Positions 9,551 through 64,000 of a stretch of 64,000 nt of DNA are shown in pieces. The DNA lies in the IMG/VR virus record IMGVR_UViG_3300010354_000051, positions 32,001 to 96,000 of that record; one strand, 5' to 3'. The notes below the pieces were generated by a model. It was not told the origin of the DNA. It was given only the letters and a program-made list of their open reading frames with translations, and ran no database searches. The first letter of the stretch is position 1. Every line of letters begins with the position of its first letter. Position numbers and translations under genes: made by a program. This DNA comes from a virus.

Positions 9551-10233
9551 GCATGATTAAAAACAAAAACCGGAGAAAATCCGAGTACGAGATTACTAGG
9601 GACAAGCACATCAAAGAGTGTATGTGGAAGGCTACCCATGCCGCACGCAAAGTCTCATCTTTCTCCGGAGTACCTTTTGACGAGCTGAGATCGGTGGCTT
9701 TGGAGGCCATGGTCAAATTGTATGACAAATGGGATCCGGAAAAGGCCAACTTCAGCACTTGGCTTAACCGCTCCCTCACCTTTCAACTCCTGAACTATTT
9801 GAGAGATTCCTCTCGAATGGTAAAAATGCCTCGGATATATGCCGATACATATATGCGGATTAGGAAAGTGATTTCTCGAACTCCTGAAATCAGCAACAAA
9901 GAGTTGTCAGAAATGACCGGTATTGACGAACTGGTTATTCAAGAGACCCGGAGTGCGTTTCAAGTTGTCTATCAGGAAATCAATGAGGATACGGAAATAC
10001 CGGCCAATCCCGAGTCTACTGAAGAAGACTCTTTGTCGGCCATGTTTGAGGACTACAAAGATGTCTTGGACAGGCTATCTTCTCTGCCCACTGAAGATTA
10101 CAATTTCCTCACTGATGTTTACATACACCATCGGGCTCAGTCCACTCTGTTTCGAAAGTATGCCGGGATTAATAAACCTGAGCATATACAGGAAAGAGCA
10201 GACAGGTTGATACAGGCAGTGTTAAATGGCTAA
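9547..10233 (+). CDS. RNA polymerase sigma factor, group 3 (SigF/SigB-like)
   Basis: Region 2 ELRSVALEAMVKLYDKWDPEKANFSTW...YLRDSSRMVKMPR; region 3-like ELSEMTGI; region 4 looks degenerate. Confidence 0.9.
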   Translation: MSMIKNKNRRKSEYEITRDKHIKECMWKATHAARKVSSFSGVPFDELRSVALEAMVKLYDKWDPEKANFSTWLNRSLTFQLLNYLRDSSRMVKMPRIYADTYMRIRKVISRTPEISNKELSEMTGIDELVIQETRSAFQVVYQEINEDTEIPANPESTEEDSLSAMFEDYKDVLDRLSSLPTEDYNFLTDVYIHHRAQSTLFRKYAGINKPEHIQERADRLIQAVLNG

Positions 10234-17237: not shown

Positions 17238-17276
17238 ACCCGGCTTTCAACTTTTGCCAAGTTGAAGGCTTATTAG
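17236..17276. promoter_or_regulatory. divergent pair of late-promoter motifs
   Basis: CTTTCAAC (17244-17251, minus strand) and GTTGAAGG-CTTAT-TAG (17261-17276, plus strand) back to back; the plus copy is 20 nt from the ATG at 17289. Confidence 0.6.
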
Positions 17277-57329: not shown

Positions 57330-60158
57330 TTGGCTAATCAAGTCACCGTTAATGCAGCTACCCTAAATCGTCCGGGAGTTTTTGTTACCCAGACGGCCAC
57401 TGGTGGTCTGCCACAGCCTATCGCAAGCCATGCCGTAGCGTACCTGTTCGGTACTACTGCGGCCGATGAATACTATGAAGGCAATGCGGAAGGCATTTAT
57501 TCCCCCTACCTACCTTACACTCTAACCCAAGTAGCCTCTGAGCAGGATTTTTTGGCTAAGACTGGTGGTAGCAAACCTGTTGGTAGCCCTGGAGCACTAA
57601 CTACTTACGACTCGGTCAAAGCATTTTTTGACAACGTAGGCACTAATGGGATCCTTTACTTCAGTAGAGTTACCCCAACCCCCGAAACAGTAATCGATCT
57701 GAGCCTGAGCGGTGCTGGTGCAGGATATAATGCGTTTGCGATCAAGGTAAACGGCAGATACTTCGGCACTCCGATTGGTGTGAACGATGTAGACGGCGAT
57801 GAGATCAGAGTTATCTCTACGACCGCTCTGGACGTGGTAGATAATGCTAGAGACCTTTTCGTTTTTCTGTCCGGTACAGACTCCGATGACTTCTCCAGCT
57901 TCTATCAAGTAGAGCAAACTGCAACAGAAGCCACTCAGGCCAAGTTCAGAATCTTCTCCAGAGACAATACTCTGCTCCCTGAAGTTGAGAGATTTGTCGC
58001 TTATCAGTTTAGCGACACTTCCTACCTCAACCCGCTCAGCCTCAACACCAGCAACGTAGTAAAACTCTACACCTCGGTAAAAGAGATCAACTTCCGTTGC
58101 AATAGCAGAGAGATCGCAACGGGTGAAGGCATCCTCTATATCGACGGTTCGGCCCTCAGCCTGTACGTCCAGGCCGCCAACGACGCTGTCTCCGGCACTT
58201 ACGATCCGTCAGTAGATCAGTCAGACATTATCGTTGACTATCTGCTCGATCAGGGTGTCTATACCGCTGACACCGCTATTCCCGATGACAAGATTATCGC
58301 AGTTAGCAAGGACTTTAGCTCGGGTGCTGGCAGTGGTGACAAGTGGCTAGACGTTAATGCGGTGTACTGGAGATATGATCTGGGCACGACCACCTTTGCA
58401 AAAATCGTATCCGGTTCTAATAGCGCTGTTCCCACCGGCTCGGTAACGACCACGGGCGGAGTTACTACTCGCACAGGCTATCTTCCCGACTCGGTTCAGG
58501 TGTTCTATGTGTCTGTGGCTGGAGAGAACCGGGCAATTATTGTCAATGGCGCCACTCCTAGCGAACTAACTGTAAACCTGAAAAACGAGCTTGTAGCTAT
58601 CCTGGCCGAAAAAGGTCTAGCTCAGTATTACGACCTGGAAGCAGTAACGACCAATGCCAACTACAGCGGCACTTCCTACGCCCCTAATAATGGCTACGGA
58701 GTGAGCAACCTGATCTCAGTAGCCGGTGCGCCGTTTATCCGCCCGGATATTGAAGAGATTGCACTGTCAGGTACTTTGGCTATTTCTTCCGGTACTGTTA
58801 CTGGCTCGAACACTAAGTTCACTGAAGAGCTAGGTGTAGGCAGTGTGTTTGTTGCTAACGGGACCAGATTCACTGTAACTGCCCTTACCAGCGACACAGC
58901 CCTGACGGTTACCCCGTCTACCGTAACCGTCGCCTCTGGCTCTAGCGCTAGCTTGGACAAGTCCTTAGCCAATGGCTTCTTCTCCCATGACTATGTGCTG
59001 CGTGTCCGTATCACGGCTAAAAATGGTCTGGTAAGCCCGGTTCTGGCTGGTACTAATCGCCAGGGTCTAGTCGACCAGAACGTGGTCAAACTGACCTCGG
59101 TTGCTGAGAATGTTGGTTATAGCAGCTATAAGCTGACTTCATCCGCCAAAGCTCAGGACTTTGTCTACGGCATTGAAAAGAGCATGACGGATACTTACTA
59201 TTCGCCAGGCTTCCTGCTAGCCCCTGAGGCATATAGCTCATTGTCCTACAGCGCTGGTTCTGACATCGCTTCCAGAAGCGAAGGTATGAGAGAAAGACTG
59301 AAAGTTACCCAGTCCTTGATCTCCGCTGCTGAAGGCCGGTTCGGTTCGACTGAAGGTATCAGCAACACTCAACATGTCGCACTGATTGACTGCGGCGGTG
59401 ATTCGGAAATCCTTCCTCATGCCCAGGAAGAGCTAGATCTGATCAAAAAGAGCGCAGGTTCATTCTATGGCCATGCCTCCTTCTTCGCTCCGTACATCAA
59501 AAACCTTGATGATAGATATGTACCCGCTAGCGGTTTCGTAGCTGGTATCGCCTGCGGCAGATACATTAACGAAGGTTTCCAACAGCCTCCCGCTGGTGCC
59601 AGATACCCGCTACGCGGAGCTACCGGTCTCAAGTTCAACATTACTGCCCAGCAGCAGGAAGTCACCTATTCCCTAGGTCTGAACCCAATCCGGTCTCTGC
59701 CTAACCGTGGCATTGTTGTTTGGGGTTCGCGAACCCTTTCTAGCAGCCCGCTGTTCCGATTTGTCAATACTCGAGTCATACTCAACGTATTGATTGATGT
59801 GATGAACAGAAGCTTTGACGACTTGCTGTTTGAGAATATTGATAGCGCGGGTACGGTTTACTCCAGAGTGAAATCGATCGCGTCTCAAGTACTCAACCAG
59901 TTCTACCGCCAAGGTGCTCTGTTTGGCAACAGACCTGAGCAAGCATACCTAGTCGTATGTGACGATTCCAACAACTCCACAACTCTACTCGAACAGGGTA
60001 CAGTTCGTATGGATGCGTATGTGGCTACTAGCCCGACCCTGGAGAGACTGGCTATTACAATTGCCAGAACTCCCGCCGGTCAGGTAGCCCTGTTGGCCGA
60101 CTCGTTCAGTAGAAACGAGGAAAGATTTGCTGCGTTCCTGAGCGCTACTAACCTGTAA
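57330..60158 (+). CDS. tail sheath protein
   Basis: RPGVFVTQ N-terminus; C-terminal FFAPYIK, VPASGFVAG, PPAG, LNPIR, VVWGSRTL, FRFVNTR, AYLVVCDDSNN; TTG start after GGAG. Confidence 0.95.
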   Translation: MANQVTVNAATLNRPGVFVTQTATGGLPQPIASHAVAYLFGTTAADEYYEGNAEGIYSPYLPYTLTQVASEQDFLAKTGGSKPVGSPGALTTYDSVKAFFDNVGTNGILYFSRVTPTPETVIDLSLSGAGAGYNAFAIKVNGRYFGTPIGVNDVDGDEIRVISTTALDVVDNARDLFVFLSGTDSDDFSSFYQVEQTATEATQAKFRIFSRDNTLLPEVERFVAYQFSDTSYLNPLSLNTSNVVKLYTSVKEINFRCNSREIATGEGILYIDGSALSLYVQAANDAVSGTYDPSVDQSDIIVDYLLDQGVYTADTAIPDDKIIAVSKDFSSGAGSGDKWLDVNAVYWRYDLGTTTFAKIVSGSNSAVPTGSVTTTGGVTTRTGYLPDSVQVFYVSVAGENRAIIVNGATPSELTVNLKNELVAILAEKGLAQYYDLEAVTTNANYSGTSYAPNNGYGVSNLISVAGAPFIRPDIEEIALSGTLAISSGTVTGSNTKFTEELGVGSVFVANGTRFTVTALTSDTALTVTPSTVTVASGSSASLDKSLANGFFSHDYVLRVRITAKNGLVSPVLAGTNRQGLVDQNVVKLTSVAENVGYSSYKLTSSAKAQDFVYGIEKSMTDTYYSPGFLLAPEAYSSLSYSAGSDIASRSEGMRERLKVTQSLISAAEGRFGSTEGISNTQHVALIDCGGDSEILPHAQEELDLIKKSAGSFYGHASFFAPYIKNLDDRYVPASGFVAGIACGRYINEGFQQPPAGARYPLRGATGLKFNITAQQQEVTYSLGLNPIRSLPNRGIVVWGSRTLSSSPLFRFVNTRVILNVLIDVMNRSFDDLLFENIDSAGTVYSRVKSIASQVLNQFYRQGALFGNRPEQAYLVVCDDSNNSTTLLEQGTVRMDAYVATSPTLERLAITIARTPAGQVALLADSFSRNEERFAAFLSATNL

Positions 60159-60160
60159 TC

Positions 60161-61720
60161 ATGGCTCGCAGATTTCGCCAACAACCCGAAATAGTTCTCA
60201 ACTCTGAGAAGCCCTTGACAGAACAACAGCCCAGACGGGTTGTATATGTCGAGATGTTTCGGGCCGGCCCGCAGATCAGTTCTACGGGTCAGAAGATGGT
60301 GTTTTCGGAAGAAGACCTTGATCAGGTAGTGAATAGCTACCGGCCAACCAAACACGAAGCACCATTAATTATCGGCCATGACCAAGATGACAGTACACCT
60401 GCTCTAGGTCATGTCCGAGAAGTTTGGCGGAAGGGCAAATCTCTGTGGGGTAAGGTAGAACTTACCCCTAAAGCAGAAAAACTAATCCGAGACGGGGTGT
60501 TCAAAAAGGTAAGTAGCTCGTTCTACTTGCCCGATGCGGACACTAATCCCACTCCGGGTAGTCTGTCCCTTCGCCATCTCGGACTTGTGTCCATACCGGC
60601 GGTAAAAGGACTCACAGCCTTTTCCGAAACCCTACCCGAAGGCTCGATTACAATAACTCCAAGGGAGTCTTCTATTTCATTTCAAGAAAATCACCCAACT
60701 ATGGCTAGAAGAAAAACCGAAGCCCCCAAGCAGCAAGTTGTCGATCACGCTGACGGCAAGGGGATGACCATTAATGTGAATATTAATGGTGTTAAGGCTA
60801 ATGAGCCGGACGAAGTAAACGAAGCCGGCTTTGAAACCCAGAATACGGGCGCTGCTGCTCCGTATGACATGGAATATGGGGATGACATGAACCCTGAATC
60901 TCCCGCACCCGGTCAGGTCGATCCGAGCCTTCAGCGAACCGACATGGTCGAAGGGCCTGATGGTGGCGGCGACATGGGCGATGAGAGCGATGGCCAGGGC
61001 GACCCGATTCCGCCCGATGGCGAAGGCCCGGACGGTGACCAGGGCGATTCCGGCCCGGACGACAGCGGTGTGGACGACATGTCCGGTGACGACGACGAGA
61101 AAGTTGCTTCAGATCTCGCCTCTAAGTACACCGAAGAACAGCTCATTATGGCCCTGTACCAGCTTGCTCAGTCTTCCAGCAATATGGCTGAAGATTGCAA
61201 CATGCCCGGTTATAGCGAAGAAGAGCCTGGTGAAGAAGAGGTTTACACGGCGGAGTTCTCTGAGACTCCCGACCCTCTAGCTGAGAAAGTTGCCCAGCTT
61301 GAAGAAGAACTAGCCACTCAAAAGCGTGCTATGAGACAAAAAGAAATCTCTGATTTCTGTGAGACTCTGTACGATGATGGTAAGTTGACTCCCCAGGTTG
61401 TTTCCAGTGGCGATCTTGTTCGCTTTATGGAGACCTTGAACTCCAAGAACAGTGTGAACTTTAGCGAAAGCGGCAAAGTTTCCCAGTTCGAGTTCATGAA
61501 GTCTATGCTGGACAGCCTGCCCTCCATGGTCAGCTTCAGCGAAGTTGCAACTCAAGCCAGTGCTCCGAAGAAAGCTAAGCCGGTTCGGCCCAATGCCGAA
61601 GGTTATGTTTACGACGAGCGCAATTCCGAATTGCACTCCAAGGCTCTGAGCTACGCAGAGAAGAACAATACGGACTATATGTCCGCCCTAAGACTCGTCA
61701 TCTCTGACGAAATTGACTGA
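60161..61720 (+). CDS. prohead protease/scaffold (Mu gpI-like)
   Basis: EMFRAG, PLIIGH, PALGHV, KKVSSSFY, LRHLGLVSIPAVKGL, then acidic low-complexity and coiled-coil scaffold region. Confidence 0.9.
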   Translation: MARRFRQQPEIVLNSEKPLTEQQPRRVVYVEMFRAGPQISSTGQKMVFSEEDLDQVVNSYRPTKHEAPLIIGHDQDDSTPALGHVREVWRKGKSLWGKVELTPKAEKLIRDGVFKKVSSSFYLPDADTNPTPGSLSLRHLGLVSIPAVKGLTAFSETLPEGSITITPRESSISFQENHPTMARRKTEAPKQQVVDHADGKGMTINVNINGVKANEPDEVNEAGFETQNTGAAAPYDMEYGDDMNPESPAPGQVDPSLQRTDMVEGPDGGGDMGDESDGQGDPIPPDGEGPDGDQGDSGPDDSGVDDMSGDDDEKVASDLASKYTEEQLIMALYQLAQSSSNMAEDCNMPGYSEEEPGEEEVYTAEFSETPDPLAEKVAQLEEELATQKRAMRQKEISDFCETLYDDGKLTPQVVSSGDLVRFMETLNSKNSVNFSESGKVSQFEFMKSMLDSLPSMVSFSEVATQASAPKKAKPVRPNAEGYVYDERNSELHSKALSYAEKNNTDYMSALRLVISDEID

Positions 61721-61725
61721 AGCCT

Positions 61726-61741
61726 GTTGAAGGCTTATTAG
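61726..61741 (+). promoter_or_regulatory. candidate late promoter GTTGAAGG-CTTAT-TAG
   Basis: Shares 18 identical nt (GTTGAAGGCTTATTAGCT) with the copy at 17261. Confidence 0.65.
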
Positions 61742-61743
61742 CT

Positions 61744-61858
61744 GATCAGTGTAACAACGGTTGGGGGAGAGTAATCTCCCCTTATCGGCAGATAGCTGAG
61801 ACTATCTGTTCTGGTTACACAGAGTAGTAGAAATACTATCAACTGATCGGGACGATCA
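61744..61858 (+). ncRNA. multibranched structured leader RNA of the head operon (unassigned)
   Basis: Nested stems GATCAG/CTGATC and TGTAAC/GTTACA; hairpins GGGGAGA-GTAA-TCTCCCC, CAGATAG-CTGAGA-CTATCTG, GTAGTA-GAAA-TACTAT; alternative TGATCG-GGA-CGATCA. Confidence 0.6.
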
Positions 61859-61885
61859 ATCTAACTCACACGGAGACTTAACTAC

Positions 61886-62599
61886 ATGGCGACTGATCCT
61901 CGTTACATGTCGTTCGACCACCAGTATGTAGAGACCGTAACCGTCTCTGATGCTACCGCTCTACTTAATGGTGTAGAACGATGCCGGTTTGTTAAGAGAA
62001 CTGGCGCTTACCCTGTTGCCGGTGGCTATGCCGCTGGCGTGAACATCTACCGTATTTACGGTCAAGGTGAACTGACTGACAAAGGCTATCAGGTTGTCGA
62101 ATCTGATATGACCGCTCTTACTGGTACTCTGTCTATCAGCACCGCTGGTGTTGTGACCGGAGCCGGTACTAATTTCGATCCGCAAATGCCTGTCGGCACT
62201 ACGATCAAAATTGGTGCGAATCTTTACCGGGTTATGAGTGTAGCTAGCGACACTAGCGCTACCGTATCTCCCGCCCCTGCTACTTCCATTTCCGGCGCTA
62301 CTGCCTATATCTGGCCTGGTACTTGGGATGGTAAGTTTAACCCCAGCACTACCCCTAACAAGCCTGGCGTATTCCCGTACCAGGGCCTGATGAGTGTGGT
62401 AACGACTGGTATTGCCATTGTCGAAGTAGATTCAGCTTCTACTTTCGCTGTAGACGACGCTGTTTATTCCACCACTTCCGGTACTGCTTCTAGCACTGCT
62501 GGCTCGGGTGTAGTGATGGGTCGCTGCTTGGATGTAATCAGCGCTGCTGGTGCTGGTCAATACATTCGGGTGAAGCTCGGCAACGAGACTGGCGCCTGA
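61886..62599 (+). CDS. head decoration/cement protein (DUF2190-like) with inserted beta domain
   Basis: RFVKRTG..P.AG...GV and SVVTTGIAIVE...GRCLD...AGQYIRVKL; position just before the capsid gene; GGAG RBS. Confidence 0.75.
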   Translation: MATDPRYMSFDHQYVETVTVSDATALLNGVERCRFVKRTGAYPVAGGYAAGVNIYRIYGQGELTDKGYQVVESDMTALTGTLSISTAGVVTGAGTNFDPQMPVGTTIKIGANLYRVMSVASDTSATVSPAPATSISGATAYIWPGTWDGKFNPSTTPNKPGVFPYQGLMSVVTTGIAIVEVDSASTFAVDDAVYSTTSGTASSTAGSGVVMGRCLDVISAAGAGQYIRVKLGNETGA

Positions 62600-62630: not shown

Positions 62631-62690
62631 ATGATGAATCTTGATCAGGTAAGGGTAATTGACCCCATCCTAACTCAGCTAGCACAAGGT
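62631..62690 (+). CDS. major capsid protein, exon 1
   Basis: MMNLDQVRVIDPILTQLAQG; AAGGGA RBS; in frame with exon 2 after intron removal. Confidence 0.9.
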
Positions 62691-63602
62691 TAATTGTAGC
62701 CGTGCCAAAAAGAAATTTTTGGTATTATAAAGGGGTGAATTGCTGGAAAGCCTAAATCTCTTTGGTTATGGAAACTGTGTATGAGCAATTTATCGAGCAT
62801 TGTCGCTTGATAGAAGAAACAGATAAAGTGTCTGGGGTCTATATGGAAAAACACCACATTTTGCCCAGACATTCTGGAGGAACAAATGAAAAACAAAACC
62901 TCATTTATCTCACCAGAAAAAATCACATTCTAGCTCATTACTACAGATGGATAGCTTACAACTCTAAACCTGACAGGTTAGCTTACCTTTTTATGAGGGG
63001 AGACATAACTGGAGAGGCTAAGAGAGAAGCTAGTAAACTCGCACAAAAAACCTGGACATTTGAAAAAAGGTCTGCATGCTCTAAAAAAGCCTATCAGACT
63101 ATGCTTAAAAGAAAATCGGGGATTGCTGCTAGGGGAGAAACTTGGAGACAAAATGTCTCAAAAGCCTCTAAGAAAAACATCCTCCAAAACAGAAAGAGCA
63201 GATTTACGAATAAAACAGTTAGTCTGCAAAACTGTTCTTTTAGGTTTAAACATGGATCCAGGGTCCTTTTTATAAATCAAAAGGACTTTTCTGACTTTTC
63301 AGAAACTAGCAAATACCTGTGTGTTTTGTTGGGAATAAAAGTTAAGAAAAGTGAGCACTTAAAGTTTATAAGACTAGTGCGCGGCGAAAGAAAAGTATTC
63401 CATGGCATCAAAGTAGACATGGTGATCAGCAGCCAAGCCGAGAATGGGCAAAGTTTTCTCGGAAGGTTCAGAGACTAGGAGAATGAGTCCCAACAATAAT
63501 TTCTCCCACGAGTGCCCCTCAGCCTCAAGGCTGAAGATATAGTCCGAACTTACAGGAAACTGTAAGAAGTAGAAGATAAAGAGCTTCTACGATAACATTC
63601 TG
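62691..63602 (+). mobile_element. group I self-splicing intron (IA-like, 912 nt)
   Basis: P (AATTGCTGGAAA), Q (GATCAGCAG), R (GTTCAGAGACTA) and S (AAGATATAGTCC) elements; P1 with U.G pair, P10, P2, P3, P7.1, P8, P9 GAAA loop; terminal G at 63602. Confidence 0.95.
62762..63478 (+). CDS. intron-encoded HNH homing endonuclease
   Basis: EKHHILPRHSGGTNEKQNLIYLTRKNHILAH HNH motif; basic C-terminal DNA-binding region; likely ATG at 62768. Confidence 0.9.
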   Translation: MVMETVYEQFIEHCRLIEETDKVSGVYMEKHHILPRHSGGTNEKQNLIYLTRKNHILAHYYRWIAYNSKPDRLAYLFMRGDITGEAKREASKLAQKTWTFEKRSACSKKAYQTMLKRKSGIAARGETWRQNVSKASKKNILQNRKSRFTNKTVSLQNCSFRFKHGSRVLFINQKDFSDFSETSKYLCVLLGIKVKKSEHLKFIRLVRGERKVFHGIKVDMVISSQAENGQSFLGRFRD

Positions 63603-64000
63603 TACAAGAACGCTGACGGTGTAGCTACCTTCTTCGCTCCTTCCGTTTCCATGAACGTTAGAGCGGGTAGAACTTTGGTATTCGGTAAGGAGGCTTTTGC
63701 CGCTCAGAACTTCCTACGTTCTCCCGGCACTAACATCCAGAAGATCCAGAACCAATTCGGCACTCGGAGCTTCGCTCTTCGTCAAGAAGCCATTAGCTGG
63801 GAAATTGCCGAAGAAGTAGCCGCTGAGGCTAAGAATGGTGCTGCGGCTATCGACCTTCGCGCCTATGCCGCCAAGGACGCCGCTAACCGTCTAATGCAGT
63901 CTTGGGAAATCCAAGTAGCTGCTAAAGTCCAAGACATTACTCAGTACGAGACCGGTAACGTACTCGATCTGGCCACTTACAACGGTGGTGCTGATCAGTT
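63603..64000 (+). CDS. major capsid protein, exon 2 (runs off the window end; lambda gpE/Mu-like family)
   Basis: YKNADGVATFFAPSVSMNVRAGRTLVFGKEAF...; open to the end of the window; highly expressed codon usage. Confidence 0.9.

Follow-up and report, generated by a model that had tools for sequence, protein, structure and literature searches.

Why do some phages related to cyanophage S-TIM5 have a long gap between the gene for the head maturation protease and the next gene of the head block, and what lies in the gap? We examined this locus in a 64,000-nt stretch (the window) of a 118.7-kb virus record from IMG/VR, and all coordinates below are positions in the window. The structural genes resemble those of cyanophage S-TIM5 (Aurunvirus), with ~73% DNA identity over short stretches, and the phage is an uncultured freshwater or estuarine relative of S-TIM5. 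The stretch is present in public runs that are labelled as aquatic, freshwater, or freshwater-sediment metagenomes. After the tail sheath gene (57330-60158), a plus-strand gene at 60161-61720 encodes a 519-aa head maturation protease with an acidic, scaffold-like C-terminal part (PHROG 976, E = 9e-72; Mu-like_Pro in Pfam). The next gene on the plus strand (61886-62599) encodes a 237-aa virion structural protein in the position of a decoration protein; it matches no Pfam family, and its S-TIM5 homolog is annotated as a virion structural protein. The major capsid gene follows (in the region 62631-64000). From the stop codon of the protease gene (61718-61720) to the start codon at 61886, the spacer is 165 nt long. 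A Shine-Dalgarno-like GGAGA can be read on the plus strand at 61872-61876, 9 nt ahead of the start codon.

An initial annotation of this DNA had described the spacer as a strongly folded, multibranched RNA. All of the stems that it listed are present in the sequence at the coordinates that it gave, and the ATG is at 61886. On the plus strand, the outer stem (P0) is formed by 61744-61749 and 61843-61848, and it also appears in the computed fold. The inner stem (P1) pairs (G)UGUAAC at 61749-61755 with GUUACA(C) at 61814-61820. Inside P1 are two hairpins. P2 (61758-61787) has a GUAA loop in this genome and includes the GNRA-loop hairpin of the initial annotation (61764-61781), and P3 (61789-61808) pairs CAGAUAG with CUAUCUG around a 6-nt loop. 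The strand that leads from P3 back to P1 (J3/1, 61809-61813) is UUCUG. Further downstream are a hairpin with a GAAA loop (61824-61839) and a competing hairpin (61844-61858), which shares letters with the outer stem on its 3' side. Strong folding was also borne out: the 105 nt from 61744 to 61848 fold at -45.4 kcal/mol, versus -23.8 +/- 3.1 kcal/mol for shuffled sequences (z = -6.9), and 0 of 200 shuffles equaled the real sequence. The whole spacer, folded as a 170-nt stretch, gave z = -4.3 (plus strand) and z = -3.4 (minus strand).

To find relatives, we searched the downstream protein against IMG/VR and the JGI metagenomes, which gave 156 related loci. In S-TIM5 and ~115 of the 156 loci, only 11-16 nt separate the protease stop codon from the next start codon. 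In 40 loci, the gap is 129-204 nt; these amount to 20 distinct sequences from ~12 clearly different lineages. Every long gap holds the same core, always in that spacer. The core comprises P1, P2, and P3 (61749-61820 in the window), and its layout is the 5' strand of P1 (UGUAAC), 1-2 A, a GC-rich P2, 0-1 nt, P3, 3-8 nt ending in G, and the 3' strand of P1 (GUUACA). We built a covariance model from nine sequences of one subgroup and left out two other groups of sequences (groups B and C). The model finds groups B and C, with E values from 2e-8 to 4e-4, even though they were not used to build it.

The core also shows the pattern of substitutions that is expected of a conserved fold. In an alignment of 19 sequences, which was fitted to the model and so somewhat favors the structure, 96.9% of the cells are standard pairs, compared to 83% in shuffled alignments and 36-46% if the partners are slid. 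Compensatory two-sided changes occur at 13 of the 23 pairs, and 0 of 500 shuffles match the covariation score. This is the covariation among homologous leaders that the initial annotation had proposed to look for. The changes are unevenly distributed. P2 varies in sequence and in length, with compensatory changes at 8 of its 9 model pairs. P3 is 100% paired, with compensatory changes at 5 of 7 pairs and 2 invariant pairs; in groups B and C, its loop is extended by 25-35 nt. In P1, the 5' strand is invariant (19/19) and the 3' strand is invariant except for an A to G change in two lineages, which replaces U-A with a U-G pair; the outermost pair is G-C, A-U, or G-U. In J3/1, which has 3-8 nt in the relatives, only the final G is conserved (alignment A4). 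In most lineages, P1, P2, and P3 also emerge when the entire spacers are folded by energy minimization, independently of the model.

Is the element an RNA or an inverted repeat that acts as DNA? The alignment contains 22 G-U or U-G cells and just 1 A-C or C-A cell, and the model scores 75.1 bits on the plus strand versus 12.7 bits on the minus strand. The excess of G-U pairs and the asymmetry of the scores imply that the element is an RNA in the sense of the genes, rather than a DNA cruciform, which upholds the view of the initial annotation that a structured plus-strand RNA precedes the decoration-like and major capsid genes. As judged from the alignment and the folds, the element is a conserved three-way-junction RNA of 60-90 nt.

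The element has one copy in the window (with filters off) and one copy in the entire 118.7-kb record. The model gave no match in S-TIM5, nor in two near-complete relatives whose gap is short, and the P1 words have no genome-wide bias. An exact match to an 18-nt word of the core in another IMG/VR sequence (L084) was considered as a second copy, and was rejected as a chance partial match in another context. We then computed a maximum-likelihood phylogeny from 94 distinct sequences of the downstream protein (MAFFT and FastTree, midpoint rooted). All 20 of the tips with the element form one exclusive clade (support 0.92), which indicates that the element was gained once, in the ancestor of this clade, and was retained afterwards. 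In the relatives without the element, the 11-16 nt gap corresponds by homology, over its whole length, to the part of the long spacers from GGAGA to ATG. Thus, the insertion lies exactly between the stop codon and the ribosome-binding site. Within the wider family, locus L098 (Ga0099849_1048859) encodes a long form of the downstream protein (236 aa), yet it has an 11-nt gap and no junction, and it branches among phages with the short form of the protein. This shows that the ~70-aa insertion in the downstream protein and the RNA element are independent characters.

Outside of the core, little is conserved. The outer stem has 7 bp in this genome (p = 0.11 from shuffles). When we compared the longest flank-to-flank helix of each lineage to 1,000 shuffles, it did not exceed chance in any lineage (the best p values were 0.07-0.11). 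Counterparts of the outer stem, with differing sequences, do recur in many of the minimum-energy folds, but as they are indistinguishable from chance, we dropped the outer stem from the motif. The GAAA-loop hairpin and the competing hairpin are found in this genome only, with a weak trace in the 91%-identical locus L005 (4 bp of the competing hairpin). So, the multibranched structure of the initial annotation holds for P1, P2, and P3, which are conserved and covary, and not for the outer stem or these two hairpins. The annotation had also proposed a switch between the outer stem and the competing hairpin, and this reading is unsupported because both are specific to a lineage. Similarly, the GNRA loops that it emphasized are not conserved: the loops of P2 include GUAA, GAAA, and GCAA, but also UUU, UCU, UAC, and AAAA. 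They therefore give no evidence for a design based on tertiary docking. We found no kissing loops; the P2 loops have 3-5 nt and are unrelated to the P3 loop. The alignment contains no fixed anti-Shine-Dalgarno stretch, and the folds of the different lineages show no consistent pairing of the ribosome-binding site. The 47-74 nt that separate the junction from the start codon differ between groups and contain lineage-specific hairpins.

Some subgroups have additional structures near the junction. In group B (L002/L004, L012, L014, and L100), the 55 nt upstream of the junction contain an extra domain, which consists of GGGGUAACACG, a covarying hairpin, and CGCAUCC. This domain repeats features of the 5' half of the core (GUAACA, CG, and a hairpin) and stands in the place of the promoter-like box that is described below. 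Going by these sequence features, it looks like a partial duplication. Also, group B and L013 share a second hairpin downstream of the junction, with a conserved GAUACG loop and covarying stems. It is located at about 2950-2980 in L013 and about 60-40 nt before the start codon in L002, L012, L014, and L100. It is absent from the window.

The initial annotation could not match the element to any riboswitch or ribozyme, and neither could we. No Rfam 15 family matched the window at the gathering score. With E up to 10, there were just two chance matches between 61500 and 62100, at 17.9 and 13.8 bits, and the element from five diverse homologous loci gave no Rfam 15 matches either. ARAGORN reported 0 tRNA or tmRNA genes at 61600-62000. 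We also compared the element to specific classes of RNAs. We rejected a hammerhead ribozyme: in place of CUGANGA and GAAA, the three junction strands consist of A(A), of G or no nucleotide at all, and of 3-8 variable nucleotides, and Rfam's hammerhead models did not match. We rejected a purine-like riboswitch pocket, for which the junction strands have too few nucleotides and vary too much; the loops, too, lack conservation. We found no conserved expression platform of a riboswitch: only this genome has the competing hairpin, pairing at the ribosome-binding site is inconsistent, and a U-run is present in four relatives only. An intrinsic terminator does not fit the window copy, which has no U-tract, as the initial annotation had noted; a stem followed by a U-tract occurs only in L007, L008, L009, and L024. 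A phi29-type pRNA was set aside as well: the loops are not complementary and most of the lineages lack a terminator. In some lineages, 9 nt of P1 and J1/2 match a segment of 16S rRNA, which we take to be the one just before helix 45. This match is at the level of chance, and Rfam's SSU models did not match.

The core is preceded by a promoter-like box. The initial annotation had placed the start of the element just after a promoter motif, and this motif turns out to be a repeated sequence. The box at 61726-61741 on the plus strand is GTTGAAGG-N6-AG, and it ends 8 nt before P1. The pattern GTTGAARG-N6-AG occurs 10 times in the window versus 0.36 times expected (~28-fold), and 0 of 100 shuffles reach 10. 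The copies are at 471, 7511, 15601(-), 16193, 17261, 35786(-), 39428(-), 44696, 56131(-), and 61726. Most copies of the octamer lie 27-44 nt before a start codon on the same strand, including that of the tail sheath gene. These short distances imply that at most of the copies, the mRNAs have very short leaders or are leaderless. The 17-mer at 61726 is identical to the copy at 17261, which is 28 nt before the start codon of a 1044-aa ORF. From the box at 61726 to the start codon there are 160 nt, and the folded RNA occupies the extra length. The phage encodes a protein with sigma-70 region 2 (approximately 9640-9816 in the window). Searching the literature for the box word turned up unrelated papers only, and the paper on TIM5-like cyanophages does not mention promoters, introns, or intergenic elements.

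The box is found next to the junction in seven of the ~12 lineages (this genome, L005, L011, L031, L007/8, L009, and L024). In all seven, the box starts 23-25 nt before P1 and ends 7-9 nt before P1, while the 7-9 letters between the box and P1 differ. The box is absent from the spacers of L013/L097 and of groups B and C, although it is used elsewhere in those loci. Because the two deepest branches of the clade have the box, the combination of box and junction is probably ancestral.

Four relatives (L007, L008, L009, and L024) have a further arrangement, in which the transcribed box pairs with a segment past the junction and a run of 7-10 U comes next. In the predicted pairing, this layout looks like a terminator for transcripts that read through from upstream. 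RNA that reads through from the protease gene could form the terminator-like stem, and transcripts that started at the box could not. The predicted layout would fit a transcript boundary, with the junction ending one RNA and beginning the next. In three metatranscriptome runs, contigs from RNA libraries cover parts of the stretch. One contig spans 61715-61902, which includes the end of the protease gene, the whole spacer, and the beginning of the next gene. It is consistent with read-through RNA, but it may also stem from DNA carried over into the library. The depth of these contigs is higher downstream than upstream of the element, they leave 61723-61754 uncovered, and one of them begins at 61755, but contigs cannot rank genes or show the ends or levels of RNAs, so we did not count any of these as evidence.

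We also noticed two features of the surrounding transcription unit. Weak matches to Trp_leader (26-28 bits) are found past the capsid gene and before the next promoter-like box, in L014 (4671-4775) and L013 (5622-5690). These are probably terminator-like structures that close the decoration/capsid transcription unit. The major capsid gene in the window is split by a 912-nt group I intron (62691-63602), which carries an HNH endonuclease ORF (62762-63478). Joining exon 1 (62631-62690) to 63603 onward gives the N-terminus MMNLDQVRVIDPILTQLAQG followed by YKNA, which is nearly identical to that of the capsid protein of S-TIM5. One RNA-library contig joins 62690 to 63603 exactly, and represents either the spliced form or an intron-less variant. 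The Rfam model Intron_gpI matches at 63264-63566 with 46.2 bits, just below its cutoff of 50, and L013 has a similar sub-threshold match.

With its structure, conservation, strand, single copy, fixed spacing from the box, and single origin established, what might the element do? Stem-loops at the 5' end are known to stabilize bacterial mRNAs, as in the ompA leader, and intercistronic hairpins set the stoichiometry of the products of the Rhodobacter puf operon. Our preferred explanation, which we hold tentatively, is that the element acts in cis on the fate of the mRNA: it would lie at a transcript boundary, be recognized by a factor, and set the expression of the decoration-like and major capsid proteins. 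In this scenario, the junction was inserted between the stop codon of the protease/scaffold gene and the next ribosome-binding site, once, in the ancestor of one clade of S-TIM5-like cyanophages. In lineages with the box, which include this genome, the message for the decoration-like and major capsid proteins would carry the junction right at its 5' end or close beside it, and the junction would shield this end from nucleases that depend on a free 5' end. A 5'-terminal stabilizer would have its helix a few nucleotides from the end of the transcript; here, the box ends 7-9 nt before P1, and a start site near P1 is putative. In lineages without the box, the junction would be inside a polycistronic RNA and would serve as a processing site or as a barrier to decay. 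Either way, the amounts of the proteins of the capsid shell would no longer be tied to the protease encoded upstream. That P1 and P3 contain invariant letters suggests that a specific protein or RNase recognizes the junction, beyond mere stability. An effect on mRNA fate fits best with the location of the element, the fixed spacing from the box, the terminator-like layout in some relatives, and the polycistronic setting of the lineages without the box; we infer where transcription starts, that stability or processing is affected, and that a factor binds.

Several observations weigh against this explanation. A pure stabilizer needs no invariant sequence, so the conserved letters in P1 and P3 are accounted for only by adding a putative factor. 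The need for a factor that recognizes the invariant P1 and the lower part of P3 is the weakest and also the most interesting part of the proposal. About half of the lineages lack the box, so a 5'-terminal position cannot be the universal mode. And in this genome, no U-run follows the element.

Could the conserved letters instead be contacts for a phage protein that controls translation? The scaffolding protein of phage P22 regulates its own synthesis post-transcriptionally, and by analogy, free scaffold, decoration, or capsid protein might bind P1 and P3 and feed back on the translation or decay of the head message. Helices that keep their sequence amid changes in P2, the loops, and the flanks are typical of a surface that is contacted by a protein, and the element sits between the scaffold/protease gene and the genes for the shell. 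But 35-60 nt of unconserved sequence separate the junction from the ribosome-binding site downstream, which makes direct occlusion unlikely. (More generally, masking of the ribosome-binding site by the junction is disfavored by this distance, 47-74 nt if measured to the start codon, by the unconserved intervening sequence, and by the lack of consistent pairing at the site.) Also, no candidate for the binding protein emerged, and the findings are not specific for feedback. We consider a protein-binding operator to be rather unlikely, although it is not far-fetched. The conserved letters could also contact the host's RNA polymerase, which is itself conserved. The put RNAs of the lambdoid phage HK022 act on polymerase in cis to cause antitermination, with no need for protein factors, and the element might likewise modify polymerase for read-through of terminators, or else be the top portion of an attenuator or terminator. 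Just 0-1 nt lies between the hairpins P2 and P3, and in seven of the ~12 lineages they come straight after a promoter-like box; in four relatives, a U-run comes right after the enclosing stem. However, this genome and most of the lineages lack the U-run, the part of the window downstream of the element revealed no terminator for which read-through would be required, and put RNAs are not known to have a closing helix such as P1. An action on transcription thus seems quite unlikely to us.

The other explanations that we considered are less compatible with how the core varies. If the element were a stand-alone small RNA that acts in trans, then the box, the ~85-nt structure, and the U-run would delimit its transcript in L007, L008, L009, and L024. 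Yet 8 of the 12 lineages lack a terminator and about half lack the box, there is no conserved single-stranded seed, and the RNA-library contig continues into the next gene, so we view a small RNA as very unlikely. A compact junction without a match in Rfam could be a new class of riboswitch or self-cleaving ribozyme. Its junction strands have 1-2, 0-1, and 3-8 nt, though, and just one A and one G are conserved in them; the core of a hammerhead is absent, and neither the loops nor any expression platform is conserved. Given the short and variable junction strands, the absence of a platform, and the lack of an Rfam family, this interpretation has hardly any probability. We think the same of an element that acts as DNA, such as a cruciform, an inverted repeat that is bound by a protein, or the scar of a mobile element. 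Although the element behaves like an insertion when compared to S-TIM5, and the strands of P1 form an inverted repeat at the level of DNA, a structure of both strands would not explain the 22:1 ratio of G-U to A-C or scores of 75 versus 12.7 bits. In addition, each genome has a single copy, and the half-sites are 45-75 bp apart at a variable distance.

How does the element compare to known RNAs? The ompA leader stem-loop, the hairpins of the puf operon, and the RNase III sites of phage T7 are simple hairpins. The element shares with them a stable structure within a same-strand operon, at a likely boundary, before the genes with the highest demand. Those hairpins confer stability or are generic RNase sites, whereas the element is a three-way junction with an invariant 6-bp helix, and its effect on cleavage or stability is putative. 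With the put RNAs, the element shares two adjacent hairpins ~1 nt apart, just downstream of a phage promoter (here, the promoter-like box of seven lineages), and presumably an action in cis; it differs in having the closing helix P1 and in also occurring without a nearby promoter. The pRNA of phi29 is another three-way-junction RNA from a phage that is tied to morphogenesis of the head. It is a separate transcript of 120-174 nt, with complementary loops for ring formation, and belongs to phi29-like podoviruses; the element shows none of these features.

Judged by Rfam 15 and the searchable literature, the motif represents a new RNA family, albeit one of a familiar type, namely the structured leaders or intercistronic RNAs in the late operons of phages. 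A catalog from 2023 lists 8,495 candidate structured RNAs from intergenic regions of IMG/VR, with a median length of 65 nt and support from covariation (PMC10690425). It draws on the same source of data (IMG/VR contigs) and describes the same kind of object. The motif is not described in the main text of that paper, and it may be among the unnamed DNAVirus_X entries. Since thousands of similar candidate RNAs from phages have been cataloged, the practical value of one more is modest until its function is shown.

The invariant helix is a well-defined target for finding an RNA-binding factor, and the box, with its fixed spacing, could help to locate the start site for a candidate class of phage-sigma promoters. 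A more speculative idea, which we consider unlikely, is that the invariant surface of P1 and P3 might be a docking site for a specific factor. This might be RNA polymerase with the phage's sigma factor, with the junction as a put-like antiterminator that needs no protein factor, or else capsid or scaffold protein in its free form. In that case, the junction would be a dedicated switch that ties the output of capsid protein to the state of transcription or assembly. If this were true, it would be a new class of phage regulatory RNA. More broadly, how tailed phages set such unequal amounts of protease, scaffold, decoration protein, and major capsid protein from one late block is poorly understood beyond a few model phages. 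The S-TIM5-like phages provide a natural experiment: one clade gained and kept a box and a folded RNA at the boundary between the protease and the shell genes, while sister lineages, among them the cultured S-TIM5, join the same genes by 11-16 nt.
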